A stretch of DNA of 42,108 nucleotides from positions 1 through 42,108 of the forward strand of contig CAINDV010001020.1 of NCBI GenBank assembly GCA_903847485.1, read 5' to 3'. The stretch is from an uncultured Verrucomicrobiota bacterium. Its GTDB lineage: Bacteria > Verrucomicrobiota > Verrucomicrobiia > Limisphaerales > JAJXZI01. The translations under genes and the position numbers were made by a program. Shown here piece by piece: positions 3-33,475 of this stretch (its first letter is position 1; each line of letters starts with the position of its first letter). The notes under the pieces are model-generated. The model saw only the letters and a list, made by a program, of their open reading frames with translations. It was not told the DNA's origin and did not search any database.

Positions 3-629
3 AGTGCCAGCAAGGTCGCCAACGCTAACGAACCGTTCCACCCGGCATATTCCGGCACCCGGCATACTGCTACCTATGCCGTTCCCGGCATAGGCGTCAA
101 ACCACTGCTTGAGTTCCTGGCGATCACGGTTGCCGTCCACGATGAGGTTTAGCTCAATGTTGTTGCCAGCATTGCCGAGGCCGAGGCCGCGCACGGTGAA
201 GTTGGAACTGCCAAGGATGGCGTCTTCCACCCCAGCGGTGGCGACGTGATACATCTTTCCGTGAAGGAGGTTGGATTGCTTGATGGTTTTGATGTCCGCC
301 TTGCGCTCGATCCAGTCAGCGCATTCCCTGGCGACGCGCTTCTGCTGAAGCTTATTGGCAAGTTCCAAGCCGTCGGAATCAATGATGAAGGCCTTCTTCT
401 CAGTTTTACTCGGGTCGAGCCGGTTGACGAAGGACGGCTCGCCGAAGAGAAAGTCGAGGTGTTCGATGCAGTCTAATTCCACCTTGAGCGCGTCATAGGC
501 ATAGATGGTGAAGTAGGCCGAGACGATGGAAAGCTTCGATCCGTTCTGCGTTTTCGCCCGGAGGAAGTCGGCGACCGTTCCTCTGGTATGGTTGTCGCGC
601 AGGCCGGAGGTGTTAGTTGGCGTGGGCAT
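3..629 (-). CDS. Phospholipase D-like nuclease domain of the type found N-terminal in SNF2-helicase defence proteins; runs off the window edge, possibly truncated or chimeric near position 95
   Basis: Not in the ORF track because it is open at the edge. Hand translation from ATG 629: MPTPTNTSGLRDNHTRGTVADFLR...LSIVSAYFTIYAY...LLHGKMYHV...AILGSSNFTVRGLG...NIELNL...LKQWFD. HxK plus GSSNFT is the PLD signature. The sequence after KQWFD no longer looks like the family. Confidence 0.75.
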   Translation of the reverse strand, partial: MPTPTNTSGLRDNHTRGTVADFLRAKTQNGSKLSIVSAYFTIYAYDALKVELDCIEHLDFLFGEPSFVNRLDPSKTEKKAFIIDSDGLELANKLQQKRVARECADWIERKADIKTIKQSNLLHGKMYHVATAGVEDAILGSSNFTVRGLGLGNAGNNIELNLIVDGNRDRQELKQWFDAYAGNGIGSSMPGAGICRVERFVSVGDLAGT

Positions 630-685
630 TTAGTTGAGAGAGAAGTTTCCAGTGTTATTCGATGCTTTGGTGCGGCGGAGGGCAG

Positions 686-778
686 TGTTCATGCGGTCGG
701 GTTCGCCGGGGATGGCGGTGGCACAATTCCAAAGACAGGTGCCGCAGTGGACGCATTTCTAGCGGGCGAAGGCCGGCA
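686..778 (-). repeat. Degenerate second copy of the ETF-QO 3' end (93 bp, matches 1632-1724)
   Basis: Manual alignment to 1632-1724 gives 86/93 identity. It reads PAFAR*KCVHCGTCLWNCATAIPGEPDRMN, with an in-frame TAG. Confidence 0.95.
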
Positions 779-798
779 TAGTGAATTGACAATAGAAC

Positions 799-1236
799 TC
801 AAAGCAAAACTCCTGGTTCAACATTGAAACGTCGGGCCAAGGTGCGAATGTGATCCACTGTCAGGCGGCGCTCTCCGCGCAGAAGTTTTGGGCCGAGCGA
901 ACGGTCGCTGCCCAATATCCGCGAAAGATCGGCGGCGGATAGTTCATGTTGTTCGAGTAAGAACTTGAGGGTGTCCAGCGGTGTGCTTTGGGGCCACTTT
1001 ACCTGCTTTCGGTCGTAGGCTTCAATGAAGGAGCTGACCGCTTCCAAATAGTCTGTTTGGTCGGGATTGAGGCGATCCTCGAAGCCTAGAAGGGATTCAA
1101 TGGCATTACAGGCGGCAGCGTAGTCCGAATCGTCATGGAGCGGGCGTGGGACATAGTGCTGGCAAAGCCCTGTGTAATCCTTCGGCAAAGTCACGAAGGA
1201 TTTGGGGCCGGCGTCGGTGCGAATGGTTGTTTTCAT
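799..1236 (-). CDS. higA: HigA-family antitoxin (XRE HTH)
   Basis: PRPLHDDSDY...LEAVSSFIEAYD...PLDTLKFLLEQHELSAADLSRILG...LRGERRLTVDHIRTLARRF is a typical HigA layout. Overlaps higB by 4 bp. Confidence 0.9.
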   Translation of the reverse strand: MKTTIRTDAGPKSFVTLPKDYTGLCQHYVPRPLHDDSDYAAACNAIESLLGFEDRLNPDQTDYLEAVSSFIEAYDRKQVKWPQSTPLDTLKFLLEQHELSAADLSRILGSDRSLGPKLLRGERRLTVDHIRTLARRFNVEPGVLL

Positions 1237-1541
1237 AATTCATTCTTCCAGGTGTCTTGGCTGTATTCGGCATGGGTAAGAAATCGCAGGGCAAAGACCA
1301 TTCCCGTATTGAAATGGACGGCACATAGCAGACGAAACTCATTGCCGCCCACGTTGAACACCGCCACTTTACGCGCGCTTCTTACCGTGGCTAGGTCAGC
1401 GGACGGAAAGGTTTGGCGCATGTCCGCGAAGGAACCCCAACGGACGGGGCGCACTACTTTGACCCATTGGCGCATAGAGGAAGCCGCTCGCGCATGGTCG
1501 TTGGCCCACTGGCGGATGGTGCCTTCGGCGATGATTCGCAT
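1233..1541 (-). CDS. higB: HigB-family mRNA interferase toxin
   Basis: MRIIA...W..FADMRQTFPSAD...VFNVGGNEFRLLCAVHF....RFLTHAEY motifs. Toxin lies upstream of the antitoxin. Confidence 0.92.
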   Translation of the reverse strand: MRIIAEGTIRQWANDHARAASSMRQWVKVVRPVRWGSFADMRQTFPSADLATVRSARKVAVFNVGGNEFRLLCAVHFNTGMVFALRFLTHAEYSQDTWKNEL

Positions 1542-1584
1542 GGGGACAAATTGTCTTCGGCCAGCCTGGCAGTCAATTTGAAAC

Positions 1585-3513
1585 TCAATTCTCCGCCGAG
1601 TGCAATCCGCCGGTGCCGGCGCGGAAGGCGATGTTCATGCGGTCAGGTTCGCCGGGGATGGCGGTAGCACAATTCCAAAGACAGGCACCGCAATGGACGC
1701 ATTTCTCGCGGTCGAAGGCCGGCACGGGGCCTTCGCCGGGAGTTATGGCTTGTCCGCTACAAGCCTCGATGCAAACCTTGGTGCCGCACTGTTTGCATAA
1801 CTCCGGGTGGAGAAAGACGACATGGTCCGCATAGCCCGGCGGTGCCTGGACCTTACCGCCCATGAGCAAGGCGTCTTGATGGGAGACGAGTAACTGTCCA
1901 TCATAGGGAATCGCCGGCCAGCCGACCTTGTCCATCAGGGCACCGTGGAGTGAGACGCTCTTGGCGCGACATTCCTCGCGGAGGCGGGCGATCTCGTCGG
2001 GTGATATGCGGTCGCGGTAGTAGTCTTCGAGACTCGGAATGCGCTGCCAAGGCGGCACTGGCTCACTGCTTAGGTTGAGACGGCCGTCTGTCAGGCCCGC
2101 CAGTGCCATGCCGATCATGCCGCGGACGACGCCGTGTTGGAAGCCATCGCGTGATTTCTCGGCGGCAATGGCTTCGGCTTCGACCCAACTGGCGCGACGG
2201 AGTTGCACGTAGGTTTCGTCGAGATTTTGCTTGGTGAAAGGTTTCTTCGCTTTGAGCAATTCCAGGACGGCTTGGGCCAATTGAGCGCCGGTGGTCCAGG
2301 CTTCGTCCACGCCAGAGCCGGTGAGGACGTTGGTGCTGCCGCTACATTCGCCGATGCGGGCGTAACCGTCGCCGGTAAGATGCGGTTCGCCGCGGCGGCC
2401 GGATTCGCCGAGGGTCTTGGCACCCCAGGAGCGGAGCTTGCCGCCCTGGAGATATTGCCAGAGGTAGGGATGAAGCATCCAGTGTTGGAGATAGCGATAG
2501 GCGGTGCGCGCGGGGTTGTCGAACCACGACGGCACAAAGATGCCGAGCGACGCGACACGATCGGGGTGGACGTAGAGGAAGCCGAATATCTCTGGTTCGG
2601 GATAGCCAAAGGTGTGCAGCACTGTGCCCGGCTTGAGAGTCGTGTCTGCGGGCAAGTCCACCACGAACTTCATGCCGATGGCCCAATCGCGGGTGTGATG
2701 GCCTTCGGGCATACCGAAGTGGGCGTCCAATTGCTGGCCGATGGCACCGACGGGGCCATCCCCGATAACCGTGAGGGCAGCGCGGATGTCCATGCCGGGC
2801 GTGAAACCGTCGCCGGGGCGGCCTTGTTTGTCCACGCCTTGATCGAGCAGGCGGACGCCGACGACCTTTCGGCCATTAGTGGCACAGGCATCTTGCCTGT
2901 GCGTTGTTTCTGTAACACACAGGCAAGATGCCTGTGCCACTTCCTCGATCAACACTTCCGACACCGGCGTGCCGGGCCAGATTTGCACGGTGCCGGTGCC
3001 TTGCACTTGCGCGCCGACCCATTGCATGAACTGCCCCATAGAAAACACCAGTCCGCCGGTCTTATGGAGGAAACCCGGGGTCCAAGGTAACTCGACCGCA
3101 CTTTGCGAGCAGGGCAGCGCCCATTGCAGCAGCTTGACCATTTCATCCGCCGCGCCGAGGGCCATCGAACGGCGGCTGGCACCCACCGGGTCGAGCAGAT
3201 AGAGCACCTTCTCCTCACCGACGGGCGCGGACATGGGAATGCCGGCGTGGTCAAGGTCGGGGAAAGTGGCGCGCAAGCCGCGGGCTTTGGTGACGACGCC
3301 GGAGACGCCGAAGCCGATGTCATCGGCGCGCTCGTAACAGAGCACTTGCGGTGGCAGGCCGGGCATGACGGCGCTTTCGACGGCGGGGGTGCCGTCGGGA
3401 TTGACGAGTTGCTGGGACAGCGTGGCGAGGAAGCCTGCCGTCGCCGGCCCGAAGCCGACGCAGACGATGTCCACATCCATGCGCTGACGTTCTACGATGG
3501 GTTCGGTGCTCAT
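1585..3513 (-). CDS. Electron-transfer flavoprotein:quinone oxidoreductase (FixC-like FAD domain plus C-terminal 4Fe-4S FixX-like domain)
   Basis: N-terminal DIVCVGFGPA FAD motif, GDGYARIGE...GSGVDEA, and C-terminal CxxCxxxxC...CVHCGACLWNC...GGLHSAEN. Confidence 0.9.
   Translation of the reverse strand: MSTEPIVERQRMDVDIVCVGFGPATAGFLATLSQQLVNPDGTPAVESAVMPGLPPQVLCYERADDIGFGVSGVVTKARGLRATFPDLDHAGIPMSAPVGEEKVLYLLDPVGASRRSMALGAADEMVKLLQWALPCSQSAVELPWTPGFLHKTGGLVFSMGQFMQWVGAQVQGTGTVQIWPGTPVSEVLIEEVAQASCLCVTETTHRQDACATNGRKVVGVRLLDQGVDKQGRPGDGFTPGMDIRAALTVIGDGPVGAIGQQLDAHFGMPEGHHTRDWAIGMKFVVDLPADTTLKPGTVLHTFGYPEPEIFGFLYVHPDRVASLGIFVPSWFDNPARTAYRYLQHWMLHPYLWQYLQGGKLRSWGAKTLGESGRRGEPHLTGDGYARIGECSGSTNVLTGSGVDEAWTTGAQLAQAVLELLKAKKPFTKQNLDETYVQLRRASWVEAEAIAAEKSRDGFQHGVVRGMIGMALAGLTDGRLNLSSEPVPPWQRIPSLEDYYRDRISPDEIARLREECRAKSVSLHGALMDKVGWPAIPYDGQLLVSHQDALLMGGKVQAPPGYADHVVFLHPELCKQCGTKVCIEACSGQAITPGEGPVPAFDREKCVHCGACLWNCATAIPGEPDRMNIAFRAGTGGLHSAEN
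2878..2941. repeat. REP-type palindrome (perfect 24-bp inverted repeat) inside the ETF-QO reading frame
   Basis: AGTGGCACAGGCATCTTGCCTGTG (2878-2901) and CACAGGCAAGATGCCTGTGCCACT (2918-2941). Translates as VAQASCLCVTETTHRQDACAT. Confidence 0.93.
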
Positions 3514-3582
3514 TGAAATAACTAGGTGTTGCGGTCAAAGGGCGGCGAATGATTGCGTCACCGACAGTGTCTTGGCAAGCGC

Positions 3583-4833
3583 CTACTCTGGCGTCTTGGG
3601 AAGCGGTGCCAGCAGCGGGTCCAACGAGTGCCGGTGGATGCCGAAGAAGTCTTTGAAGCGCAGAATGCGCTCCCGGGCCGCAGTGTCGCGGAAAGGTTCA
3701 CCGACTTTCACCGCCGCCAGCATGAGATTTTTGGGCGTGTGCTCGGAGGCGACGAACTCAATCAACTTCACCCGGTAGCCGGCCCATTCCAGGAACAGCG
3801 CCCGCAAGCCATCGGTCGCCCATTCCGCCATGCGCTCCGCCATGAGGCCGTGGCGCAAGACCTCAGCCAGCGGTTGCGGTTGGCCGAGTTGCGGCCGCAC
3901 TTCCTGGTGACAACACGGAGCCACCACCAGCAAGCGCGCCCGCGCCTCGACGCCGCGCCGGAGGGCGTCGTCGGTGGCGGTGTTGCAGGCGTGCAAAGCG
4001 ATGAGAGCGTCCAGCAGCGGCAGCTCGGCGGAAGCAATATCGCCAGTCACAAAGGTCAAGCCCGCCGCGCCGATGCGTACCGCCACGGAGTTGGCTCCGG
4101 CGGTCAGTTCCGGGCGCGTCTCTACTCCAAGGACGCAGACTGGTCGCTGCCACACGCGGTGGAACAAGTGCCACGCGCCGAAGGTCAGATAACCTTTGCC
4201 ACAACCCATGTCGGCGACAGTGAGGAGCGGCGCGTCTGCGACCGCCGGAGCGCCGGCCCAGCCGCAATCGGCGGCGAGGTGCGCGAGAATTTCTAAGTAA
4301 CGACTGATCTGGTGATGCTTGTCTGCCATCGCGGGACGGATCCTGCCACTGACGTCGGCGATGCCCAGGCCTTCCAGCCAGTCGCGGGCGGAGGCGTCGA
4401 GGAAGGAATGCTTCGCCTCGTCGTGCGAACGCGGTGGGGCAGTCTTGGTCCCCGGGCGGTGAGTAACGAGGTGGACCTCACCGCGAGCGGGGATTCCCAA
4501 TTGCCAGTCCCGCCGGGTAGTGGCTAGGTGGGCGTTGCGGAAAGTGACGCCGAGTTGCGCCCGCACCCAGGCCAGCCCCTCGGTCAGCGGCAGATTACGC
4601 GTCACATCGCGCTGAGGCTGCCGGAACGTGAGCGAGAGGTGCGGCACAGCTTTGAGATCAATCAGGCGGATTAGGATTTTGCCGACGCTGGCCAGTTCGC
4701 CGGTGGCGGGCGCGACCGGGCTGGAAAGCGTGACCCGGACCAGCGAATCATCTGCGCAACTGGCGGCGAGTTGCGCGAGGAAACGTTCAACGGCAGAGGG
4801 TGTGGCACTCAGTGGCGCGACGATTTCGTTCAT
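3583..4833 (-). CDS. Class I SAM-dependent methyltransferase (Methyltransf_32-like)
   Basis: VADMGCGKGYLTF, ALHACNTATDDAL, VAPCCHQE and EHTPKNLM motifs. Start placed at MNEIVAP (4833) rather than the ORF-track start. Confidence 0.88.
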   Translation of the reverse strand: MNEIVAPLSATPSAVERFLAQLAASCADDSLVRVTLSSPVAPATGELASVGKILIRLIDLKAVPHLSLTFRQPQRDVTRNLPLTEGLAWVRAQLGVTFRNAHLATTRRDWQLGIPARGEVHLVTHRPGTKTAPPRSHDEAKHSFLDASARDWLEGLGIADVSGRIRPAMADKHHQISRYLEILAHLAADCGWAGAPAVADAPLLTVADMGCGKGYLTFGAWHLFHRVWQRPVCVLGVETRPELTAGANSVAVRIGAAGLTFVTGDIASAELPLLDALIALHACNTATDDALRRGVEARARLLVVAPCCHQEVRPQLGQPQPLAEVLRHGLMAERMAEWATDGLRALFLEWAGYRVKLIEFVASEHTPKNLMLAAVKVGEPFRDTAARERILRFKDFFGIHRHSLDPLLAPLPKTPE

Positions 4834-5081
4834 GGCAATAGTTTCATCGCACCGGCTGGAAGCGGCAAGCGCCAAGTCGGGGAACCGGCGATTTTGTTGC
4901 CCTTCCGAACACTTGGACAAGTATCCGAACAGCAGGGAGGGATGTCCAGATAGTGAGCTGACCCGGAGGTTAGCCTACAGTTCCGCCAGCCAGGGCAATG
5001 GATCGTAAGTCTGTTCAAGGGAGGCTCGCGGTTGACCGGCGGATGGTCTGCGGGGACGGGCGGGAGTTCAGCATAGGGGAA

Positions 5082-6953
5082 CTAACGCCTCGGTGTTTTC
5101 GTGCTTTTCGTCAGACCGTGAAGGGCTTTCTTGACGGACCAATCATTTCGCTGCAACGCACCCTCCGCAAGCTGGCGTGCCACACCGGTCAATTCCTGCA
5201 CGATACGAATGGCGCGGTCGCACAACTTGGCATTCGTGGGCCGCACCTCCACCATCAGGTTTTCGACCACCTTTCCCAACTGCACCATAGACAAGGTCGT
5301 CAAGATATTGAGCAGGAGTTTCGTGGCGGTGCCCGCCTTCAGTCGGGTGGAACCGGTTAGTATCTCCGGTCCTATGGCCGGCGCGATGACGAGTGTTGGC
5401 CGGGTTCCGCGTTTGAACACAAGGTTGGGATTGAAGCAGATAAGAATCGTGGTGGCACCTAACTCGCGCGCCGCGTGCAGCGCGCCCCAGACGAACGGAG
5501 TGCGTCCACTGGCGGCGATGCCCACCACCACATCTTTCCGGCAAACACCGCGGCGGCGCAGGGCCTGTGCGCCGTCGGCGACGTCGTCTTCCGCATCCTC
5601 CTGCGCGCCGTGCCAAGCCTGATCGCCCCCGGCCACAATGGCTTGAGTCATCTCCGGCGAGACACTGAACGTGGGCGGGCATTCATAGGCATCCAGTGCT
5701 CCCAGACGACCGCTCGTCCCGGCCCCGACATAGAACAGTCGGCCGCCGCTACGAAAGGCACGAACCGTGAGTAGAACCGCCTGACTGATTTTCTTTTGCT
5801 CGCGCAGGAGCACCGCCGGAATGGTGGCATCCTCACTGAGCATGAGGCGGATGGCCGCAGCGACTGACATCTGATCTAGCTTGCGCGAGAGCGGATGGCG
5901 CTGCTCCGTGGGCGAGAGACCCCTAGACTGGGGAATCAAATCGGCCGCCGCAGTTGGACGCGGCGTCACCTCGCATTCAGGAACAGCACAAGGTTGTTTC
6001 GCTGACTGATAAGAGGGCGCTTCACTCTGTTGCTGCGCCAGTTGCACCGCTCCCCAGGCACCCTCGCGGGCCAGCAATTTCACCACCGCCCCGGGCCAGT
6101 CGGCCCTAAGCCGGTTCCCCACCTGGCGAGCGAAGCCGGGTTGCTTCTGGAGGACACTGCCGGTGAGCACAAACTCAACTGGGCGGCCCTTCTGCGATAG
6201 GCGGCGCGCGCAGGCGATGGCGTTATGCGAAATCATCTCTACGGACTCAGCCAGAATTTCCAGCGCAATTCTGTCGCGCTCCGCCGCAGCCGCAAATAGC
6301 TCGACGGTCAGAGCGGCCAGCGCGGCTTTATCCGCCTCGCTGGCCCAGGCAATAAGTTGGTTCGGCGATTCTAACTCCAGCACGCGGAGGCATCGCTGGC
6401 CCAGTGCGGGCCAAGTGCCGGTTTCATCAAACGTCCGAAAAACGGCCTGCAGCGTGCGCAGAGCGATGTCATAGCCGCTGCCCCGGTCACCGAGTAGGTG
6501 TCCCCAGCCGCCAGTCAGCACTTTCCCGCCCTGCGCGCTTTGTCCGTAGCACGAGGCCCCGGTGCCACTGATGACAATGACGCGCACTATCTTGGCGGCG
6601 CTCGACTTGTCGCTCGCGGCCGCGAGGGCCGTCTCCAGATCGTTGCCCGCCCAGCACGGGACCGCTGGCCAGATGTGGGTCGCCGCAGCCCGAATACGCT
6701 CCCGGTCTTTCTCGTCCAGCGCCCCCGCCATGCCAATACCGAGCGCTGTCGGGAGCGGCGTCTGACGAGCAATGTTCTGTAGCAGACCGAGCAATTGAGC
6801 TTCACTCAGCAGCCGTAGGTTAGCCGGGGCATTCTCTTCTATCCGCTGCCGGCACTGGCCGTTGGCATCAGCGAGAATAGCCACGCTCTTAGTCGCACCA
6901 GCATCAATTCCGAGAAACAGCGGGATGGGGCGCGGCGTGAGTTTCGATGTCAT
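5082..6953 (-). CDS. murQ: Fusion of a BadF/N-acetylglucosamine-kinase-like ATPase and N-acetylmuramic acid 6-phosphate etherase
   Basis: N-terminal LGIDAGATKS...ISGTGAS...GGWGHLLGDRGSGY. C-terminal TEQRHP...GAGTSGRLGALDAYECPPTF...EDAED...GPEILTGSTRLKAGTATK...NAKL.DRA. Confidence 0.92.
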   Translation of the reverse strand: MTSKLTPRPIPLFLGIDAGATKSVAILADANGQCRQRIEENAPANLRLLSEAQLLGLLQNIARQTPLPTALGIGMAGALDEKDRERIRAAATHIWPAVPCWAGNDLETALAAASDKSSAAKIVRVIVISGTGASCYGQSAQGGKVLTGGWGHLLGDRGSGYDIALRTLQAVFRTFDETGTWPALGQRCLRVLELESPNQLIAWASEADKAALAALTVELFAAAAERDRIALEILAESVEMISHNAIACARRLSQKGRPVEFVLTGSVLQKQPGFARQVGNRLRADWPGAVVKLLAREGAWGAVQLAQQQSEAPSYQSAKQPCAVPECEVTPRPTAAADLIPQSRGLSPTEQRHPLSRKLDQMSVAAAIRLMLSEDATIPAVLLREQKKISQAVLLTVRAFRSGGRLFYVGAGTSGRLGALDAYECPPTFSVSPEMTQAIVAGGDQAWHGAQEDAEDDVADGAQALRRRGVCRKDVVVGIAASGRTPFVWGALHAARELGATTILICFNPNLVFKRGTRPTLVIAPAIGPEILTGSTRLKAGTATKLLLNILTTLSMVQLGKVVENLMVEVRPTNAKLCDRAIRIVQELTGVARQLAEGALQRNDWSVKKALHGLTKSTKTPRR

Positions 6954-6997
6954 GCGGGCAATGACTAAAGGGTAAATGCTCTTGCGGTGGTCTGTTG

Positions 6998-19315: not shown

Positions 19316-19319
19316 CTTA

Positions 19320-23577: not shown

Positions 23578-23652
23578 ACAAAAATTGGTTTTGACTTGGT
23601 TTGACCAGGTTTAACTAAATGGCAGTGGTCCGACGGGCGAGGGGCTGGCGAC

Positions 23653-23825: not shown

Positions 23826-23924
23826 GGCAGGGGCGGGAAAAGCCGCCGGAATGGCGGTGGATGGGTTGGTTTGGGCGATTTGGGGCGTTTGGCGGTGGAA
23901 ATCGCGCAAGTTGTTGCAAATGAG

Positions 23925-24227
23925 GCATCTAGGCAGAAACACAAGGCTTCTAGGCAGCGGTACAAGGTTTCTAGGCTGCCAAATAAGCCTTCACGGCACG
24001 CCAACAGGACTTCACGGCTGGCGAACATGGTTTCCAGGCTGCGAAACAGCGTTCCACGATTGCCGGACATGGCTTCACGGAACCGGGACAGCATTCCACG
24101 GCTGCCGGATGGCGCTTCAAGGTTACGCCACGGGATTCCCAGGCAGCGGAACGCGGCTTCACGGTTGCGCCACGGGCCTTCACGGCTGAGAAACAGATTT
24201 CCAAGGCTGGTGGATCGCGCTTCGCGC
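23925..24227. repeat. Degenerate 21-bp tandem repeat, about 14 units
   Basis: Units such as GCTTCTAGGCAGCGGTACAAG, GCTTCACGGTTGCGCCACGGG and CCTTCACGGCTGAGAAACAGA follow at an exact 21-nt period. Confidence 0.9.
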
Positions 24228-24636
24228 TTTGGCGTGCTCTCCTCGCTGGGCACGAAGATCGTCCGATTCGAATCGGTCGCCGCGTTGTGGAACACCGCCC
24301 CCTCGGCCCGAAAGTTCACCATCGAGAAGTTCCTGGCCGCCCCCGGCGTGCTGGTGCTGGGTAATGATCCGGTGTTGCGCGACAGCATCTGGCCCATCAA
24401 CGCCCTGCTCCTCGAAGCGCTGACCCAAGAGATTCTGCGCCGGCGATTCTTTGTAGGAGCCGACGTAAGTAGGCTCTGATCGCTGGGAAGTTTGAGCCTC
24501 CTCACGTCGGCTCCTACAGGGTCGGATTGGTTTGTCCTGGATGAATTCCCCGCCATGGAGCGGGTGGATTGCATTCATGACCTGCTGCGGCGCGGTCGCT
24601 CCAAGGGCACCTCGGTGCTGCTGAGGATGCAGGGAG
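24228..24636 (+). pseudogene. Internal fragment of a TraD/TrwB-like type IV coupling ATPase, split by a REP doublet
   Basis: GVLSSLGTKI...VLVLGND...PINALLL...EIL, then after the palindrome WFVLDEFPAMERVDCIHDLLRRGRSKGTSVLLRMQ (Walker B/GRSKG pattern) following an in-frame stop. Confidence 0.7.
24452..24518. repeat. GTAG-type REP doublet (REPIN)
   Basis: TGTAGGAGCCGACGTAAGTAGGCTC and GAGCCTCCTCACGTCGGCTCCTACA. Confidence 0.9.
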
Positions 24637-24812
24637 GCATCCACTTCATTGTTGGCAACCCGCGCCGCAGTCCCGAAGCGGTCAATGAGGAGCAGGGTAT
24701 TGGCTGGCTCGTTGATTAGAACATTCGCTGCGGAAGCGGCGCGCGCGAACCATGCAATCGCTGCCGCGAAAACGGCTTGCGGCCACGGGGGATCGGCCGT
24801 CCGAACTCTCGG

Positions 24813-26258: not shown

Positions 26259-26301
26259 GATGTCAGTTTGCTTACAGTTAAAGGTTGGGGAAGACAGGGG
26301 G

Positions 26302-26850
26302 AAATGACGAATGACGAAGCCCGAAATCCGAAGCTGGCCCTTACAGAGCCGAGTTGCTGGCAGAAAAATGGCGGGTAAAAATGGCGAGATTCTGGCCCAA
26401 AACCAGTGCGGTAGGGCGACGCTTTAGCGGAGCCGCAACCAGAGCGGAGCGCCGACATTCTTGTCGGCGAGACCTTGGACGGTACAGGTTCAGAACTCCT
26501 GACCCGTGGCTTTGGTTGGAAGGGGCGGCTGGAATTAGTGTGGAACTCCCCACCCCCTTCCCTCTCCCCATCGGATGGGAAGAGGGTGCCCGCCAGGGCG
26601 GGTAAGGGGCTTTCGGCGGGCTCACTTGCTTGCCACGGCTCAGGGTTTCTGGGACTGGCCGACAAGAATGTCGGCGCTCCGTCTGGGCAGAAGCTCCGCC
26701 GGAGCGTCGCCCTACCGGCAAGGGGTTTGGGTAAGAGCCTATCCATTTTTACCCGCCATTTTTCTGCCAGTAACTCGGCTCTGTCAGGGCCAGCTTCGGA
26801 TTTCGGGCTTCGTCATTCATTCGTCATTTGTCATTTGTCATTCGTCATTC
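26302..26850. repeat. ~550-bp nested palindromic REP complex
   Basis: Outer arms of ~80 bp (26302-26384 and 26743-26829) enclose a GTAGGGCGACGCT/AGCGTCGCCCTAC pair, a GCCGACATTCTTGTCGGC/GCCGACAAGAATGTCGGC pair and a central CCCTCTCCCC hairpin. Confidence 0.88.
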
Positions 26851-26867
26851 CAAGTGTGGTCGGCAGT

Positions 26868-27632
26868 TCAAGGTTTCGCTTGGGGCACCGCGCCTTCCTG
26901 GATGTATTTCACCAGGGACTTGGCGATGGCTGAACCCATAGCTTTGACATCCCGTTCCGTCTCGCCGCGGGAGATGACAAACTTAGCGGCCATGGCGTAG
27001 GGGTTCATCATGACCAGGCCGCCAGGCGTATGCTTCTGGCCATTGTCCGAACCTATGCAGAGGAATGGCTGGCGCGGGTTGTTCGCCAGATCGGACACGA
27101 TGACTTCGATGGAAACTTTGCCCGAACCGGCACCAAACCCGACGGTGGCCTCTTCGACGCGGTTGCCTTCCTGCACCCGCTCGAACCAGCCACCTAATAG
27201 CCAGCCATCCTTGGGCAAGGAAGCGTCGGCGGGGAAGAAATCCGGCCTTAGTCCGGTGACACTGGGACGGCGCTCGGCCTTATAGCCAGCTTTCTTCAAG
27301 TCGCTGGTAATCGTCTCGCCGAGTGTCTGGATAATCTTTTTCGCCTTGGACTCCGAGTCGTCGCCACGCATGGCTTGGGCGTCCTGCCGCAGGCGAGCCA
27401 GCGGGCCGCCGCCCAAGCCTGCCTTCTCCGGGAGCGTCGGCGAACGCTGGATCATGCCTAGCGGAAGATAGAAGTCGGTGACATAGATGATCTTCGGTGC
27501 GTTGGTGGCCGGGAGCGCCCCGACGGGGGTGTTATCCACCACGCTAGGTTTGCGGCTGGAACTTCCGGCGCAACCGCCGAGCAACGCCCCGGCTGCCAGC
27601 AGCGTAAGAGCGCTTTGGATTCTTAGTTTCAT
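26868..27632 (-). CDS. DUF4410-like lipoprotein
   Basis: Lipobox LLGGC, IYVTDF, G.F..VQEGNR....VGFGAG and NPYAMAAKFV. Confidence 0.75.
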   Translation of the reverse strand: MKLRIQSALTLLAAGALLGGCAGSSSRKPSVVDNTPVGALPATNAPKIIYVTDFYLPLGMIQRSPTLPEKAGLGGGPLARLRQDAQAMRGDDSESKAKKIIQTLGETITSDLKKAGYKAERRPSVTGLRPDFFPADASLPKDGWLLGGWFERVQEGNRVEEATVGFGAGSGKVSIEVIVSDLANNPRQPFLCIGSDNGQKHTPGGLVMMNPYAMAAKFVISRGETERDVKAMGSAIAKSLVKYIQEGAVPQAKP

Positions 27633-27752
27633 GTGTTCAAGCGGTTCAGTAATTCGGCCGGCCGCTGGCGCAACCGCGCCCGCACCCGCAACGACATATT
27701 GCCGTGCCCAAGCCCCGGCGTCCAGCGCGGCGAGTGGCCGAGTGACAGCGGT

Positions 27753-28310
27753 TCATGGCGGGACGTGCGGGCAGTTTGGTGGCTTGTTCGCAAGGAGGGG
27801 GGCCGGCACCGCCGCCAACGCATGTTTCTGCCGCTGCTGTTTGAGCAGTTGCATCTGTTGATCTTGAAACTCCTGCGCCAGCGCCAGCAGCACGGCCGTG
27901 GACCAGGCGAAGCCCAGCAGGCCCGCCGTGGCGATCATACCTTCGAGCAACCGCCAGTTCAGGGGCAGGTTAAACGAGCTTCCCACCGTCGTGTATTCGT
28001 TCAGAGCGAAGTATCCGGCGGTGCTGAAATTGACGAAGCAATGTTTCCACTGGAAAAAGCCCGCCCACATTATGATTTCGACGATGTGGACTAACATGAT
28101 CAGCCAGCTTGCCAGGATGAGCTTGAACATACCAGCGGCGAACGCCGGTTGGTGCGCAAACCTGGCCTTGAAGGCGTTGCTGAAACGCAAGGTCCAAAGC
28201 ATACCGAAGCTGTGGATGCCCAAGGTGAGGGCGACCAGCACGACTCCCCAGATGATCTCCTCTATCCCTGCTACGTATTGCAATTCGATGACGGGACTGT
28301 TAGTTGACAT
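27753..28310 (-). CDS. Small potassium-channel-like membrane protein (Ion_trans_2 type) with an atypical filter
   Basis: HIVEIIMWA...YFALNEYTTVGS....P..WRLLEG.....GLL.FAWST layout. Start set at MSTNSP. Confidence 0.75.
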   Translation of the reverse strand: MSTNSPVIELQYVAGIEEIIWGVVLVALTLGIHSFGMLWTLRFSNAFKARFAHQPAFAAGMFKLILASWLIMLVHIVEIIMWAGFFQWKHCFVNFSTAGYFALNEYTTVGSSFNLPLNWRLLEGMIATAGLLGFAWSTAVLLALAQEFQDQQMQLLKQQRQKHALAAVPAPLLANKPPNCPHVPP

Positions 28311-28329
28311 GGTAAAACTAACGGTTGGC

Positions 28330-30912
28330 TCACGAGCGTGGAGCAGCCGTCCCGCTGGCCTCATTCGTCGGTGAAGCCGGCTCCTTGGCGTCGCTCCGGG
28401 GAATCACTTGGACGGGGATCGGCTTATCAGCCGTGAGACGCATGTCGCGCTGGGGGAAGGGGATGGCGATGCCGTTTTCGGCAAACGCGCCGGCAATCAT
28501 GTGGCGCAGGTCGCTGGCGATCTGCGCGGCGTTGTGCTTCACGACATCCACCCAGTAACGTAACTCGAACGTCAGGGCGCTGTCGCCGAACTCCATGAAG
28601 AGCATTTGCGGCTTCGGCTCCTTATTCACCAAGCCGTGACGTTCGGCCACCTCGCCGAGCAGTTGCACCACGCGGCGCGTATCGGAGCCATAAGCTACGC
28701 CGACAGTGACCGTGAACCGCACGGTGCGGTTAGAGTAGGTCCAGTTAGTCAGGTTGTTCTCCAGTAAGGCGCTGTTGGGTATTAGTGTCTCGGTGCCATC
28801 CCAGCGCTGGATCACGCTCGAACGGAGGCCAATCCCAGTGACTGTGCCGCGCTGGCCAACGACATCCAACACGTCCCCGACCCGGAACGGGCGCTCGAAT
28901 AGGATGATAATGCCACTGATGAAGTTCTTGAGTAGGTTCTGGGTGCCGAACCCCACGCCGATGGCCAGGGCGCCGCCGGCAAAGGCGAAGACGGTCAGCG
29001 GAATCTTAACCGAGACTAGGCTGAACGCGATCAAGCAGAGTAGCAGCACCACCCGCACCCAGCGGCGGATCAGGCTCGCTTGGTTCGGCTCAATCTTAAG
29101 CCGCTTTACCGCCAGCGGCTCGACCAGGCGCGCGACCAGTCCAGTAAGCCAATAGCCCACGACGAGAATGAGCACGGCCAGGGTTATCTTGCCCACGGTG
29201 ACGGGGCGTTTGCCGTAGATGGACTGGCCGTCCACGATGATCGTGTCCTCGGCCACGAACAGTTCAAAACGCCACAGCTTGGAGACGAAGGTGGAAGTCT
29301 CGGCGAATAGATCCTTCACCCGCCCGGTGAAGGGCAGCGCCTGACGGTCAAAGTCGAGTGCCTCCCGCCAGCGCGAGACTACTTGCTCACGCTTCTCCAG
29401 GTTTTGCAGCGCGCGCTGGTACAAAGCCTCCCGCTGCTGGTAGGTCTCCAACCGTTCCCGCGTCAAGGCCGGGTCCGCCGCGGCGTCGCCCTGGTTTTGC
29501 AGGCGATTCTGCTGTTCGGTGACCTGGCTGGCCGCGAGCTCAATCTGCTGCCGGTAGTACGGTTTGGCCGCCTGGATAAGTCCGCTCACGCGGGTTAGTC
29601 GCTGGTAGGCCCGTTGTAACTCGGCGAGATCGCGGCTGCCGAACACGGCCAGCCGCATCTGCCACATCTGGAGCTCGCCGCCCAGACTCTCGAAGAGTTG
29701 TCGTAACACGGTCAACCGCTGGATACTGGTCTGCGCTTGGAGACCCCGCACCTCCACCACTTCCTGGAGGTGAAGCAGGACAGCCGCATTAGTAGTCCCG
29801 GCGAACTGCTCTTGCAGGGCGTGGCGCAGGTGTTCCCGGGCCTCAGTCAAGGCCCGCTGGCACGCCTCGATATTGGTGTCCGCTGCCTGAACCTCTTGGT
29901 CAAGTCGGCGTTGTTCTCTGGCTAAGTTGTCCAGGACTTTGTCGAGGTGCGCCTGAGTAAAGGTAACCTGCTGGGCGGCCACAGCCAGTTGTCGCTTGGT
30001 GGCGGTCAAGCGCTGACTAACCTCAACCATCTCTTCGGTGGCGATCTGGCGCTTCGTTTCTAAGGACGCGAGCGAGGCAGCCGCCGTGCGCTGCCGCGCT
30101 TGCTCCAGTTCCCGCTGCCAGGCCAGACGTGCGACGAGGGTGGGATCTTTGGTCCCTTCCGATTGCTCGGCGAAGCGGCGGAGCTTTTCGTCGGACTCCT
30201 TCAGGGCCGCTTGCGCGTCGGCCAGGAACTCTTCGATCACGGTGCGCGTGATCTCGGCGGCTCTGACTTTGGCATTGAGGGATTGGAGGGCGTTCCGTAA
30301 GTCGTCCACTAATAAGACCGAATACGGCGGCGGCTCCGCGAAACCGGTCCAGGAGTTGACGGTGCTCGCAAGATCCTGCTGCCGCTGCCGGGCGGCCTCC
30401 AACGCGGCCAGGTCCTCCAGGTGAAGCTGGCAGGTGCGGACTAATCGTTGCAGCACGGAACGGTAATCTATGGCTTCCGGCACCGTGGCACCGGCCGGGA
30501 GGTTGCTGGAAGTGTTCTGGGCCGCCTGGGCACGGCTCAAGTCAGCCTGGGCTTCCGCGAGTTTGGCCCGCAGGCTGGCGGCTAGTTCACCCACTCCTAA
30601 GCTGACGCCGTTGGTGGCCAGGCGCGGCGTTACGTCGCCCGCCAGCAATCCGCCAGCACTAAGCCGGGCCGATTGCGCCACTGCGTTGCTGGCCAAAACC
30701 AGACAGCAGAGGAGGACGATGAAAAACCCGAAATCCGAAATCCGAAATCCGAAATCCGAAATGGCTTCCTGCCGTTGGTCGAAAGCTGCTCTTTCTGGAA
30801 GGCGACTTAGACAAAGTGATTCGGATTTCGGATTTCGGATTTCCTTCGGATTTCGGATTTCGGATTTCGGATTTTCCCCCTCTCCCCCGCCATTGTAAAT
30901 TCCGGTTCTCAT
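28330..30912 (-). CDS. MscS/MscK-family mechanosensitive channel with a long periplasmic coiled coil
   Basis: GALAIGVGFGTQNLLKNFISGIIILFERPFRVGD, IPNS, NWT, VGVAYGSD, FGDSAL and IPFPQRD motifs. Confidence 0.93.
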   Translation of the reverse strand: MRTGIYNGGGEGENPKSEIRNPKEIRNPKSESLCLSRLPERAAFDQRQEAISDFGFRISDFGFFIVLLCCLVLASNAVAQSARLSAGGLLAGDVTPRLATNGVSLGVGELAASLRAKLAEAQADLSRAQAAQNTSSNLPAGATVPEAIDYRSVLQRLVRTCQLHLEDLAALEAARQRQQDLASTVNSWTGFAEPPPYSVLLVDDLRNALQSLNAKVRAAEITRTVIEEFLADAQAALKESDEKLRRFAEQSEGTKDPTLVARLAWQRELEQARQRTAAASLASLETKRQIATEEMVEVSQRLTATKRQLAVAAQQVTFTQAHLDKVLDNLAREQRRLDQEVQAADTNIEACQRALTEAREHLRHALQEQFAGTTNAAVLLHLQEVVEVRGLQAQTSIQRLTVLRQLFESLGGELQMWQMRLAVFGSRDLAELQRAYQRLTRVSGLIQAAKPYYRQQIELAASQVTEQQNRLQNQGDAAADPALTRERLETYQQREALYQRALQNLEKREQVVSRWREALDFDRQALPFTGRVKDLFAETSTFVSKLWRFELFVAEDTIIVDGQSIYGKRPVTVGKITLAVLILVVGYWLTGLVARLVEPLAVKRLKIEPNQASLIRRWVRVVLLLCLIAFSLVSVKIPLTVFAFAGGALAIGVGFGTQNLLKNFISGIIILFERPFRVGDVLDVVGQRGTVTGIGLRSSVIQRWDGTETLIPNSALLENNLTNWTYSNRTVRFTVTVGVAYGSDTRRVVQLLGEVAERHGLVNKEPKPQMLFMEFGDSALTFELRYWVDVVKHNAAQIASDLRHMIAGAFAENGIAIPFPQRDMRLTADKPIPVQVIPRSDAKEPASPTNEASGTAAPRS
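30728..30875. repeat. Inverted arrays of the heptamer CCGAAAT/ATTTCGG inside the 5' end of the mscS ORF
   Basis: (CCGAAAT)x5 at 30728-30762 and ATTTCGG runs at ~30819-30875. Confidence 0.92.
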
Positions 30913-30922
30913 TCGCCCGGCC

Positions 30923-31065
30923 TCACTTCATGCCCTGCCTGACATCAATCAACAGTTGGTCCGCATAGTCTATCCGGATGAGGCCCAGGCGGGGGAACTC
31001 CAGATCGAGAATGACATAGATAGTAAGCGACATGATGAAGGCGAAGCCGAGGATGTGGAACCAAC
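30923..31065 (-). pseudogene. C-terminal remnant of a DUF4239-like membrane protein
   Basis: Hand translation: SWFHILGFAFIMSLTIYVILDLEFPRLGLIRIDYADQLLIDVRQGMK*. The 5' part is missing; the remnant begins at the 38-bp repeat. Confidence 0.7.
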
Positions 31066-31127
31066 TGAACTGCGGAGCGTCCAGAAAGCAAATTCCTATC
31101 AATAAAATTCAAATCGCTAAATGCTTG

Positions 31128-32171
31128 TCATATAAATTCGATTTCTTTACCCTGCCAGTAACTGGCGATACGTCCCATTTGGACGTAGGTTTCCATCCCC
31201 CCGCAGTGCACCCCGCGTGCCTCTATAAACTGCACGAGCGAACTGTCAGGCATACAAGTTCCTGAAGAATCAGATACAACCATTAAGGCTATCGGTGGTC
31301 TTCCGGCGGAAATGTCAGCATCAGCCATTGCCCGTAATGCCCCAAGAAGCGTAGCCTGATGTTCTATGCTTTCAGAGTATCTCGCTCCTAATACTCTTGG
31401 TCCTATATCCTCATAAAATGTTGGACTCCTTCCATTCACCTTCACATGTTCGACAAGAATAAGATATAAGATTTTCAGCCATTCGTTGGTGTCCTTATCG
31501 AAAGCATTCAAGCACACTTTAACGGTGGTTGAAGTCTCGGGATTTGAATCGGTTGGGTTGCGATTCTTATCAGAAGGTATTTCAAGATCACGAAGAGTTT
31601 CAATCTCGGATATTGAATATGATTTTCCACACCGGCAAATGGCGGCGTTTGATTTAAAATCAAAGTCATCAGATCTTATTCCGAGAGCATATTTTGATAA
31701 AAACGCTCTGTCCTCTGGAGACTGATAAGGTTGAATAGCAGAACGTGTATTCTTAAGATACAGTGTGCAATATGTCCTGCCACATTTGCATCTGAAGACG
31801 ACGTCCCTGCAATGCCTACAACGCACATACTCGCCAAGTGAAAAAGTCGCGGTAACATCCCATTCATGTCCATCCTTTTTGATCCCTCCGCAGAGACGAC
31901 ATATGCAGCCATTCCATTTGTGCCCTTCCTGACGAGTCTTGCCGCATTTCAAACATTTGCAACCTTCCCAAGAGTGAACAGCGGCCTGCATTTTGTCGCA
32001 TTTGGCGCACTTCTCGCAATCCTTGGAATAATCGTGGTTCTCGTCACGCGTCTTATTGCATATCCCACATTTGCAACCAGCCCACTCGTGGTCTTGATCG
32101 CGGTTCTTTCCACATACTGAACATTTGCAATCCGTCCATTTGTGGAATCCTAATTTGCATAACAGGCTCAT
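31128..32171 (-). CDS. Cys/His-rich protein with tandem HxWxxCKCxxC zinc-binding-like repeats
   Basis: MSLLCKLGFHKWTDCKCSVCGK, HEWAGCKCGIC, HSWEGCKCLKCGK and HKWNGCICRLCG. Low-GC codon usage. Confidence 0.8.
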   Translation of the reverse strand: MSLLCKLGFHKWTDCKCSVCGKNRDQDHEWAGCKCGICNKTRDENHDYSKDCEKCAKCDKMQAAVHSWEGCKCLKCGKTRQEGHKWNGCICRLCGGIKKDGHEWDVTATFSLGEYVRCRHCRDVVFRCKCGRTYCTLYLKNTRSAIQPYQSPEDRAFLSKYALGIRSDDFDFKSNAAICRCGKSYSISEIETLRDLEIPSDKNRNPTDSNPETSTTVKVCLNAFDKDTNEWLKILYLILVEHVKVNGRSPTFYEDIGPRVLGARYSESIEHQATLLGALRAMADADISAGRPPIALMVVSDSSGTCMPDSSLVQFIEARGVHCGGMETYVQMGRIASYWQGKEIEFI

Positions 32172-32192
32172 AGTTTTTTCCTTGTTTGTATA

Positions 32193-32306
32193 TTAATTCT
32201 CCACCGAGTGTATTCCACCTGTGCTGGCGCGGTTGGCGATGTTCATGTGTTCGGGATTGTTCGGATTAGCCTGCGAACAATTCATCAGGCACGCGCCACA
32301 GCGGGA
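32193..32306 (-). pseudogene. Diverged third copy of the ETF-QO C-terminal tail, including its stop codon
   Basis: RCGACLMNCSQANPNNPEHMNIANRASTGGIHSVEN* versus the intact gene's HCGACLWNCATAIPGEPDRMNIAFRAGTGGLHSAEN*. Confidence 0.88.
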
Positions 32307-32373
32307 AGTTGATTTAGACATTGCCGGATTTGGGTTTGTTTGCTGCTTTTTCGTATTCACGCAAAGTTTTTTC

Positions 32374-32487
32374 CTATTCCGCGATGCGTTCCTCGATTTG
32401 CCTGCGGTCGGCGAGGTGTTCGTCCATTTCCATTTTCGGAAACATGGACTCCGCGTAATACGGCAGATGGCCGGAGGTTTTATACAT
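32374..32487 (-). pseudogene. Short internal fragment resembling threonyl-tRNA synthetase
   Basis: MYKTSGHLPYYAESMFPKMEMDEH... matches the ThrRS L(W/Y)xTSGHxxxYxxxMF motif. Ends at TAG after 37 codons. Confidence 0.65.
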
Positions 32488-32545
32488 TTTGTCTTGGGCT
32501 GGTTTCTGGCGTTGAACTGAGGAGCATCCAGAAAGCAAATTCCTA

Positions 32546-33475
32546 TCAATGCTCTTGCTGGGTAGCCTCCGGCTCGGTCGGCTTACCCTGCTTCTCCTTG
32601 GCGGCTAAGAGTTGCTGCCACTTTTTCTTCCCGATCTTCTTCTCTTCTTCCTTCTCCGCGTGATGGTATTGGCGCGTGATGGCCTTGAGGTCCACGGTCG
32701 GTTTCGGGAACTTCATGTCCATCGCTTGCATCGTTTCCGCGACAATCTTCGCCACCGCGAGATTGCGGAACCACTTATTGTCCGCGGGGATGATGAACCA
32801 CGGCGCGTGCTTAGTGCTAGTCTGGCGGAGAAGGTCTTCGTAAGCCTCGGTGTAATCATCCCAGAACTCCCGCTCCGTATAGTCAGTCTCGCTGATCTTC
32901 CAATGACGGGCCGGGTCGTCCAGCCGTTGCTTGAAACGCGCGAGCTGTTCCTCCGGACTGATGTGGAGGAAGAACTTGAGGATGCGCGTGCCATTCGCCA
33001 CCAACCCTTGCTCAAAGTCATTGATCATCGCGAAACGCTTTCCCCAGACCTTGTCGGGAACCAACTTATGCACGCGAGTTACCAGCACGTCTTCGTAATG
33101 CGAGCGGTTGAAGATCACAACCTCGCCCCGCTTTGGCACCTGTTCTTCTATCCGCCAGAGAAAGTCATGCGCGGCCTCTTCTTTCGACGGTGCCTTGAAG
33201 CCGTGGACCCGCGCGCCCTGCGGATTCATCGCGCCAAGCACATGGTTAATAGTGCCATCCTTGCCGGCGGCGTCGAGCGCCTGCAGGCAGATGAGCAATG
33301 ACTGCTTGCCCTCGGCATAGAGCAGATACTGCAAGGCGCGTATTTCCCGGTCGAGTTTCTCGACTTCCTTAGCCGCCGATTTTTTGCGGTCGTGGTCCCC
33401 AGTGAAGTTGGGGTCAATCTTCTTCAAGCGGACCCGGCTGCCGGGCTTTACTTTCAATAGTTTAGTGTATTTCAT
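32546..33475 (-). CDS. ppk2: Polyphosphate kinase 2 family (class III-like polyP:nucleotide phosphotransferase)
   Basis: QALDAAGKDGTI, NPQG, HDFLWR, FNRSHYEDVL, KFFLHIS and APWFIIPADNKW. Confidence 0.95.
   Translation of the reverse strand: MKYTKLLKVKPGSRVRLKKIDPNFTGDHDRKKSAAKEVEKLDREIRALQYLLYAEGKQSLLICLQALDAAGKDGTINHVLGAMNPQGARVHGFKAPSKEEAAHDFLWRIEEQVPKRGEVVIFNRSHYEDVLVTRVHKLVPDKVWGKRFAMINDFEQGLVANGTRILKFFLHISPEEQLARFKQRLDDPARHWKISETDYTEREFWDDYTEAYEDLLRQTSTKHAPWFIIPADNKWFRNLAVAKIVAETMQAMDMKFPKPTVDLKAITRQYHHAEKEEEKKIGKKKWQQLLAAKEKQGKPTEPEATQQEH

Follow-up and report, generated by a model that had tools for sequence, protein, structure and literature searches.

Why should the 3' end of a housekeeping gene recur in one genome, detached from its gene and set beside accessory genes to which it bears no relation? 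The question is raised by a stretch of 42,108 nucleotides (nt) from an uncultured Verrucomicrobiota bacterium, hereafter the window, which is the complete contig C1020 (CAINDV010001020.1) of genome G000 (GCA_903847485.1; 9.0 Mb in 1379 contigs, 75.65% completeness, 5.08% contamination). The gene encodes electron-transfer flavoprotein:quinone oxidoreductase (ETF-QO), a respiratory enzyme. Three copies of its 3' end, reported for the window by an initial annotation, are all present and share one strand, the minus strand: copy i is the end of the intact gene and is followed by the gene pair higBA, copy ii is an orphan behind higBA, and copy iii is an orphan some 30 kb away. We posit that cassettes have probably been imported at a recombination hot spot behind ETF-QO, with the tail copies as the anchors and scars of this import, and that the cassettes, mostly toxin-antitoxin (TA) pairs, likely integrate by homologous recombination through a tail copy that they carry, where the recombination step and a circular form of the cassette are what we infer. 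The region of copies i and ii is composed as follows; open reading frame is abbreviated ORF, helix-turn-helix HTH, and labels beginning with L denote ETF-QO loci of other genomes.

3513..1585, minus strand: ETF-QO gene, 642 amino acids (aa), an ORF with Pfam ETFQO_UQ-bd and 4Fe-4S domains
1585..1724, minus strand: tail copy i, the functional 3' end (blastn and alignment)
1542..1584, minus strand: spacer s1, 43 nt from the ETF-QO stop to the higB start, part of the unit (collinear with L110 and L046)
1233..1541, minus strand: higB toxin gene, 102 aa (Pfam HigB_toxin, E 5e-20, 71.9 bits)
799..1236, minus strand: higA-like HTH antitoxin gene, 145 aa, with a 4-nt overlap with higB
779..798, minus strand: spacer s2, 20 nt from the higA stop to copy ii (alignment of the window, L110, L112, L153 and L109)
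668..778, minus strand: tail copy ii, an orphan without the last ~11 codons (blastn and alignment)
686..1631, minus strand: 946-bp unit (tail, s1, higB, higA, s2), the two ends of which are joined in contigs of other samples
630..667, minus strand: non-ETF-QO sequence in which the orphan frame continues as far as a TAA (632..630), immediately followed by the start codon ATG (629..627) of the next ORF
3..629, minus strand: PLD-like nuclease ORF (Pfam PLDc_2, RE_NgoFVII), 209 aa seen, which enters a repeat at the contig end

The full-length ETF-QO gene is the only one that a tblastn search of the whole G000 genome returned. Its product matches ETFQO_UQ-bd with 42 bits (cut-off 27.7) and Fer4_6/Fer4_2 at residues 597-618 (Pfam), is 72-80% identical in amino acid sequence to its orthologues (45 loci listed), and ends in the C-terminus ...FRAG.GGLHSAEN-stop, which is conserved among 87 aligned tails. 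Within copy i, positions 1621-1724 are the portion duplicated in copy ii, and the last ~47 nt recur in copy iii and on another G000 contig, C769. Copy ii (778..686) is identical to 1724..1632 at 86 of 93 nt (blastn, E 1.9e-30), and the match extends over 675-778 at 94 of 104 nt (90%); in the alignment the homology stops ~33-47 nt short of the stop-codon position. The two copies differ by 11 nt and 6 aa, one of the latter being an in-frame TAG at 761..759, and copy ii thus reads as a partly decayed gene end. The 946-bp unit is flanked by direct repeats of 93-104 bp and contains only higBA. The toxin gene lies upstream of the HTH gene and overlaps it, the arrangement by which the class is defined, and we predict a type II TA system of the HigBA kind. 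The Pfam matches of higA, to HTH_3 (19.2 bits) and HTH_26, are both under cut-off; homologues of higA that are 77-88% identical always adjoin higB or a higB remnant. Spacer s1 may have a promoter or operator role.

Two observations concern the ends of this segment. The ETF-QO gene holds an in-frame insert of ~93 nt (2866-2958, aa 192-215) that is palindromic and resembles repetitive extragenic palindromes; relatives have orthologues that lack it, their matches leaving out aa 191-216, and peptide-level repeats resembling it are found on many G000 contigs. We also consulted Logan contigs (k=31) of four runs, X2 and X3 from the probable source study and X5 and X6 from another; one X2 contig has 24 other letters in place of the insert. 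At the other end, the contig begins in a multi-copy repeat (window 1-128), where the summed contig depth in X2 is 222 vs 2-17 across the remainder of the 5 kb covered. In the PLD-like ORF, which is read into this repeat, the ~40 final residues match 11 other contigs at 60-100%, and the ORF has weak PADLOC matches to ZacB and REase_II.

Does the arrangement recur beyond this genome? The initial annotation had predicted partial tail copies in relatives, variable cargo behind ETF-QO, stacked arrays and tails carried elsewhere, and all four are borne out in two partly overlapping samples. For the locus sample, species genomes were scanned with the last 60 ETF-QO residues and 80 loci were kept; for the motif scan, 301 genomes of the order (labels beginning with G) were searched with a degenerate pattern for GGLHSAEN-stop at no more than one mismatch, a search that is blind to diverged copies such as copy iii and the copy on C769. 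Two motif-bearing genomes are the records of L046 and L068. A second tail on the same strand lies 0.5-4.5 kb downstream of ETF-QO in 7/80 loci; an additional match at L105 (opposite strand, E 0.008) proved to be a generic ferredoxin motif and was excluded from these. The motif is present in 69/301 genomes, and 11 of these 69 have 2-7 copies, located on one contig and strand in 10 of the 11; the maximum of seven is reached in G194. Chance is excluded because of the E-values and because the reversed motif, used as a control, was found in 0/301 genomes. Arrays of at least three tails (tail-cargo-tail-cargo-tail) occur in L078, G156, G194 and G215, and orphan tails on contigs other than that of ETF-QO in G075, G104, G194 and, with C769, in G000. 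At the seven loci the tail repeats span 51-353 bp at 80-98% identity (98% in L046 and L078). They end 0 to +5 nt from the stop codon in 5/7 loci, presumably because similarity would end where coding conservation ends, and their upstream ends are spread from -50 to -302.

The site itself can be followed through its downstream neighbor. The etfB gene follows ETF-QO in 43/80 loci, at a distance of no more than 186 bp in 20, which we take as the empty site, and of 317-6968 bp in the other 23; the ETF-QO/etfB junction is therefore a much-used insertion point. L063 is an example of the empty site, and its ETF-QO body shares 88% identity with that of the unit-bearing L110; no empty site from the same species as the window was found among the loci sampled. 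We considered etfBA as the far side of the G000 array, but these genes are located behind ilvC on C1158 instead. In G004, an extra short tail stands directly before etfB, and two additional etfB-head fragments surround a Phd-like/PIN pair. Several side observations belong to these loci. In L150-L152 and L155 (G194, G156 and G104, of genus g26), short tail orphans are fused directly to etfB-head fragments in a head-to-tail joint that inverts the native order and recurs within and between genomes. The orphans at L150:12743-12949 (G194) and L158:5505-5690 (G215) share a similar insertion of ~60 nt just past the CxxC codons. A contig of one relative (G025:C47, L022) stops within the last ETF-QO codons, and the assembly therefore breaks at the hot spot.

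The same higBA unit is found in different hosts, behind ETF-QO genes that share only 70-76% identity with that of the window. Over 1118 nt (76% identity), the metagenome contig L110 runs collinear with window 1788..675, through tail, s1, higB, higA, s2 and tail; G151 (L153) carries the unit as well, and its period is 947 bp in both L110 and L153. In L112, higA, s2 and the tail are retained behind a different, broken TA pair, and in L046 higBA is followed by a DUF2281/PIN pair that also occurs in L068 (84% nt identity). The junction of higA stop, s2 and orphan start is constant within about 9 nt in the window, L110, L112, L153 and L109. In the last of these, higB is deleted from the unit, which retains ~30 nt of the ETF-QO end at one border and 24 nt of the tail start at the opposite border; repeats of 105 bp, derived from the tail of a Y1-transposase-like gene, enclose it. 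Between hosts whose ETF-QO bodies are 70-76% identical, higBA is 75-83% identical; between L110 and L153 higBA is 82-88% identical and the ETF-QO bodies 93%, and L059 and L052, ~93% relatives of L110, have no higBA unit. Across the hosts, this pattern of identities appears to fit transfer better than co-divergence.

Are the orphan tails made locally or brought in? For eight pairs of orphan and gene-attached tail, we compared nt and aa differences with a random-mutation simulation of the same tails. In 7/8 pairs the differences are mostly synonymous (P<=0.011 in each of the seven):

L112 pair: 17 nt and 2 aa differences
L068 pair: 17 nt and 2 aa differences
L056 pair: 14 nt and 1 aa difference
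L153 pair: 17 nt and 5 aa differences
L064 pair: 40 nt and 14 aa differences
L110 pair: 24 nt and 11 aa differences
L046 pair: 3 nt and 0 aa differences

In L110 the aa changes are concentrated in variable columns (3/33 conserved vs 8/15 variable, P=0.0017). Given this synonymous-biased divergence, both copies of a pair diverged as working gene ends in different genomes, and one copy was therefore imported. Comparison with the nearest relatives of the gene body indicates which one. The gene-attached tail is foreign and the orphan resident-like in L044 and L064, where a donor-derived anchor now sits on the gene and the resident fragment lies downstream; the reverse holds for L067, L068, L110, L112 and the window, in which the gene-attached tail is resident-like and the orphan more diverged. 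Both outcomes are expected from a single crossover whose position in the repeat varies; local duplication alone, or displacement in one direction alone, would yield just one of them.

The inserted DNA itself is diverse. Small inserts are TA pairs (higBA, DUF2281 with PIN, DUF433 with DUF5615, Phd-like with PIN_3) or PIN alone, and units of 725-947 bp hold only a TA pair. Larger inserts encode an XRE-type HTH protein, a Y1 transposase-like protein, a PPDK-like enzyme, a leucine-rich repeat protein, SIS plus PfkB kinases, an acyltransferase, a desaturase fusion and a PLD/ZacB-like protein. Overall, the scanned cargo ORFs fall into TA, HTH, metabolic and defense-like genes, and the sole mobility-related family among them is Y1_Tnp, a transposase, in L078. 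As the initial annotation had stated, there is no integrase in view: neither tyrosine recombinases (PF00589) nor serine recombinases (PF00239) have a match on C1020. The tyrosine recombinase family likewise has no match on C769, with 42 matches elsewhere in G000, and none of its 68 matches in G194, G156, G151, G085 and G130 is on the six array contigs. The serine recombinase family has 6 matches in G000, G194, G156, G151 and G085, none of them on C1020, C769 or the array contigs, and zero matches in the entire G151 and G085 genomes (both 95% complete). No tRNA gene (ARAGORN) and no Rfam family (gathering thresholds) was found in the window. The same pattern of repeats is seen on other anchors, namely the etfB head, the tail of the Y1-transposase-like gene and other gene ends of G000.

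Contigs assembled from other samples bear on the physical form of the unit. The higA/copy-ii junction is covered by X2 record 2, X3 record 9, X5 record 16 and X6 record 24, and contigs of X2 and X3 span the junctions of the integrated form. X6 record 24 (881 nt, depth 5.3) reads 1457-1631 and then 686-1389, a joint 1631->686 with flanks of 175 and 704 nt that connects the end of tail i with the start of copy ii, after which higB comes once more. X5 record 16 is 976 nt long, or 946 + 30 (946 + k-1), which is the length given by a 946-bp cycle at k=31, and the contig of the ETF-QO body stops at 1623. A circle or a tandem array would be expected to produce such a head-to-tail joint. The initial annotation had suggested a check for excised 946-bp circles; a joint of the expected kind is present in contigs of the other study, and it does not prove a free circle. 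A further joint in X3 (1661->741, with 25 other letters between, side 38) was not counted, as it most probably reflects an ETF-QO tail of another organism that lies partly on each copy. Window 1-668 is almost uncovered in X5 and X6, which are uninformative on the presence or absence of the PLD-like gene there.

Based on these data, we envisage the following course. A cassette, here higBA, would travel with the last 50-350 nt of its previous host's ETF-QO; in a new host the carried tail would pair with the resident tail, and homologous recombination would integrate the cassette. A circle may enter through a single crossover, or a fragment with a tail copy at each end through an ends-in event; occasionally, one homologous end may be combined with one illegitimate end. 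The product would be gene-tail, cargo and orphan tail, in this order. Successive events would stack cassettes, recombination between copies could free a unit again, and later rearrangements may move orphan tails and cargo elsewhere, as with copy iii and C769, where the orphans would decay. The proposal of the initial annotation that the ETF-QO tail acts as a reusable homology anchor is supported by the comparison, and homology alone as the driver is a part that we infer.

Other explanations must be weighed against this one. An assembly or binning artefact, in which strain variants are collapsed or chimerically joined in a fragmented metagenome-assembled genome, is extremely improbable. The completeness, contamination and 1379 contigs of G000 and the start of the window in a multi-copy repeat would allow it; graph collapse, however, does not yield a duplication with unique sequence between the copies, contigs from three other samples cross the higA/copy-ii junction, and the architecture is present in at least 16 other genome assemblies and two metagenome contigs from different projects. 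The initial annotation had named an artefact as grounds for refutation, and the junction and the independent assemblies make it unlikely. We also consider it quite unlikely that the repeats are long target duplications of local origin, a scenario in which a break past the stop codon takes up foreign DNA and the copy on the downstream side subsequently decays. The copying of 50-350 nt of resident target in repair or replication, which this scenario includes, is just as doubtful to us. It matches the description of restriction-modification modules, as far as the consulted part of that paper goes (PMC2853133), and has further points in its favor: copy ii of the window is nearest to copy i and has a nonsense codon and replacement changes, the copies in L046 and L078 are 98% identical, and in L109 the tail of an unrelated gene, 105 bp, has been newly duplicated around the unit. 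Against it, neutral decay of a locally made copy would not give the mainly synonymous differences of 7/8 pairs, L044 and L064 have a foreign tail attached to the gene, and the downstream junction is common to several hosts.

The main rival, to which we assign a low probability, is a recombinase acting in trans near -50. Under such site-specific accretion, integrase-less satellites would be mobilized in trans with the last ~50 nt of ETF-QO as attB, an idea we find rather unlikely; equally so its corollary that the gene end is carried in attP and that tandem pile-up follows, as at the 3' ends of tRNA and housekeeping genes. The repeats stop at the stop codon, and these genomes have many tyrosine recombinases elsewhere. 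The synonymous bias fits this account too, since an attP copy turned working tail evolves under selection. It is opposed by the repeat lengths of 51-353 bp with their many different upstream ends, by the other anchors that show the same pattern, by units of 725-947 bp with only a TA pair, by the absence of tyrosine recombinases from six array contigs of five genomes, and by the absence of serine recombinases from C1020, C769 and five array contigs of four array-bearing genomes. Homologous import through a carried tail is our preferred explanation, and a number of points weigh against it. About ten short orphans start at -47 to -69 from the stop, the boundary in L078 is sharp at -50 with 98% identity, and the homology of copy ii is lost about where, or overlapping where, that of the C769 copy begins; these may indicate a preferred crossover site and count for accretion at an att site. 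The 42 tyrosine-recombinase matches in G000 leave room for action in trans. Copy ii of the window, the exception among the eight pairs, is nearest to copy i (90%) with no synonymous bias (P=0.13), and it is either young and local or an import from a near relative that has since decayed. A tandem duplication, or a graph cycle that passes through exact repeats and has its flanks pruned, could equally produce the head-to-tail joint (k=31, depth about 5). A 7-nt microhomology, TCGCCGG, is present where an etfB head meets an ETF-QO tail in L151, and the g26 array joints suggest that microhomology-mediated tandem duplication of the whole tail-to-head slot may also stack cassettes. For the clade of L110 and L153, vertical inheritance with losses would appear to fit as well as transfer does. 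The case for import is, moreover, wholly comparative.

More speculatively, these loci might belong to a recombinase-free cassette system, in which small modules carry a core-gene end as a portable homology arm, leave as circles when their two copies recombine and re-enter by RecA-dependent crossover; we offer this as a tentative possibility. Re-entry would then be possible into any genome with the gene, and integron-like arrays of TA, defense and metabolic cassettes would build up behind ETF-QO, etfB heads and other gene ends. If this is true, the decay of the displaced tail in the window (TAG at 761..759, last 11 codons lost) would mean that losing the cassette through recombination of the repeats leaves ETF-QO with a broken end, and the cassette would hold the working tail of ETF-QO hostage.

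How does this arrangement compare with known systems? For restriction-modification genes, insertion with long target duplication was reportedly described by Nobusato and coworkers in 2000. The class is delimited by an insert of <20 kb, direct repeats of >30 bp and no mobility gene inside. In the part of the later literature consulted here, restriction-modification modules, which are small and selfish, lack a mobility gene and lie between direct repeats that are long (46-423 bp), variable and imperfect, the empty site has a single repeat copy, some repeats overlap gene 3' ends, and a cycle of invasion, amplification via the repeats and release is proposed (Furuta et al. 2010, PMC2853133). The 946-bp unit with its 93-104 bp repeats and only higBA inside falls within these limits of size and repeat length, and relatives likewise have an empty site with a single tail (20/43 loci with etfB downstream). 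In contrast to that model, the two copies here are not both resident-derived (7/8 pairs synonymous-biased; L044, L064): they diverged under purifying selection, and at least one was imported and not made at insertion. The cargo here consists of TA pairs and other genes in place of restriction-modification systems, and one core-gene end is hit repeatedly across the order with a downstream junction that is common to hosts.

The orphan arrays of Rhs, contact-dependent inhibition and type VI secretion toxins, which are ascribed to C-terminal displacement via homology-facilitated illegitimate recombination in the portions of the sources at hand (PMC5361080; PMC2884548), are similar in that a conserved upstream stretch anchors incoming DNA, the older module is displaced downstream, and growth is by successive events with no integrase known, as the consulted text of PMC5361080 has it. 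In those arrays, again as far as that text goes, it is the anchored gene that varies, at its 3' tip, with orphan toxin tips and immunity genes, whereas here the anchored gene is an unchanged housekeeping enzyme and the cargo is unrelated. Integrative elements at the 3' ends of tRNA and housekeeping genes, which accrete in tandem and have integrase-less derivatives (tycheposons, 10.1101/2020.12.28.424599, are an example), share the direct repeats with the target gene end, the restoration of that end, and arrays with partial target copies between cargo blocks. They differ in that such elements need a tyrosine recombinase and a fixed att core, and here no recombinase is linked and repeat lengths vary seven-fold; the repeats span 51-353 bp, and the short orphans cluster at -47 to -69.

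Cis-mobilizable elements of streptococci are a further example of elements at gene 3' ends. Integrons, in which intI lies next to attI and cassettes are bounded by attC, an imperfect palindrome, also stack promoterless or self-contained cassettes behind a fixed point; here C1020 has no tyrosine recombinase, and the cassettes are bounded by coding tail copies. We found no prior account for ETF-QO or for Verrucomicrobia in the open-access literature, in a keyword-level and not exhaustive search with supplements outside its scope. What is new here is a housekeeping gene as anchor, TA and mixed cargo, order-wide recurrence and sequence evidence for imported anchors.

To our knowledge, it has never been settled how TA pairs move between genomes, and many hot spots of horizontal transfer have no mobile-element genes. 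The locus offers a concrete and testable route for TA transfer, in which the copied end of a core gene may act as homology arm for the next integration. It also provides a sequence signature, orphan gene ends that differ from the working end mainly at synonymous sites, by which events may be found and dated in any genome, and the order supplies a natural series for testing the route, from the empty site through one cassette to arrays of up to seven tails.

What, finally, are the copies that lie far from ETF-QO? The surroundings of copy iii are as follows.

32546..33475, minus strand: PPK2 gene (Pfam PPK2, E 1e-76), resident neighbor of the insert
32513..32550, minus strand: 38-bp direct repeat, upstream copy, which overlaps the PPK2 stop codon (36/38 identical to 31066-31103)
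32377..32486, minus strand: fragment of another foreign gene, inside the insert and upstream of copy iii (56% over 53 aa to an ORF of contig C607)
32193..32306, minus strand: tail copy iii, an orphan with its own TAA (tblastn and blastn)
31128..32171, minus strand: Cys-repeat ORF, 347 aa, GC 0.45, the cargo behind copy iii
31066..31103, minus strand: 38-bp direct repeat, downstream copy (36/38 identical to the upstream copy)

Copy iii comprises 38 codons and a stop, ending in ...MNIANRASTGGIHSVEN-stop, and was recovered over 47 aa at 55% (tblastn against the 9-Mb genome, E 9.5e-12) and over 45/53 nt (blastn). The initial annotation had placed this diverged copy, 30 kb off, just before the Cys-repeat gene, and the gap is indeed 21 nt. 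Neither Pfam nor PADLOC assigns the Cys-repeat protein to a family, and all its Atlas leads are <0.9. Copy iii is of foreign origin, as had likewise been proposed: its nearest functional tail is that of L067 (84% vs 71% for the window's own tail), and its setting is low in GC, an insert of 1.45 kb, with GC down to 0.45, between the 38-bp direct repeats. It is altered at 9/25 conserved residues and has decayed. The gene fragment upstream of it resembles part of what we take to be a class II aminoacyl-tRNA synthetase. The insert is an event separate from the higBA unit, and we read copy iii as a scar: the Cys-repeat gene would formerly have stood behind the ETF-QO gene of another lineage and have taken part of that gene along when it moved. 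The fourth tail copy, at C769:10750..10704, is identical at 43/47 nt including the stop (blastn, E 3.7e-10); no gene follows it on the same strand, and thiL converges on it. We rejected an att-site island with thiL as original neighbor, copy ii as attL and C769 as attR, as the flanks retrieved for 91 ETF-QO loci contain no thiL.

The repeats around the copy-iii insert are themselves part of a family. A 28-38 nt motif (TGATAGGAAATTGCTTTCTGGACGCTCC...) at window 31074-31101 and 32521-32548 has 21 hits in G000, including contigs C336, C495, C840 and C970. Two same-strand copies lie 0.7-2.6 kb apart on five G000 contigs, and in 4/5 of these pairs a further conserved extension is present only on the downstream copy.

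Repeated gene ends of other genes are also found in G000. At C1332:56-5309 (L114), a gene end of ~110-167 bp occurs in four copies, 88-95% identical, each before different genes; the cargo includes DUF4062, a Schlafen/AlbA_2-type ATPase, a PDC-S26/PDDEXK_4 nuclease and others, a tail-plus-cargo pattern in a defense-island setting. Gene-head copies flank small inserts at C1324:3099-5364, C155:6941-9691, C234:621-1862 and C173:15145-16678; this set includes the head of a Pnkp-like kinase (three copies), heads of TIR-like proteins and a PIN gene between 95-bp direct repeats. The ETF-QO inserts of G004 and L078 contain Y1-transposase-like genes, and the outer repeat of L109 stems from such a gene. 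The short-range direct repeats of G000 do not all follow this pattern: of 101 filtered pairs, many represent paralogues or proteins with internal repeats, and three enclose Y1_Tnp (IS200-like) genes between direct repeats of 66-90 bp (C346:17089-18712, C1227:920-1817 and C392:9490-10163).

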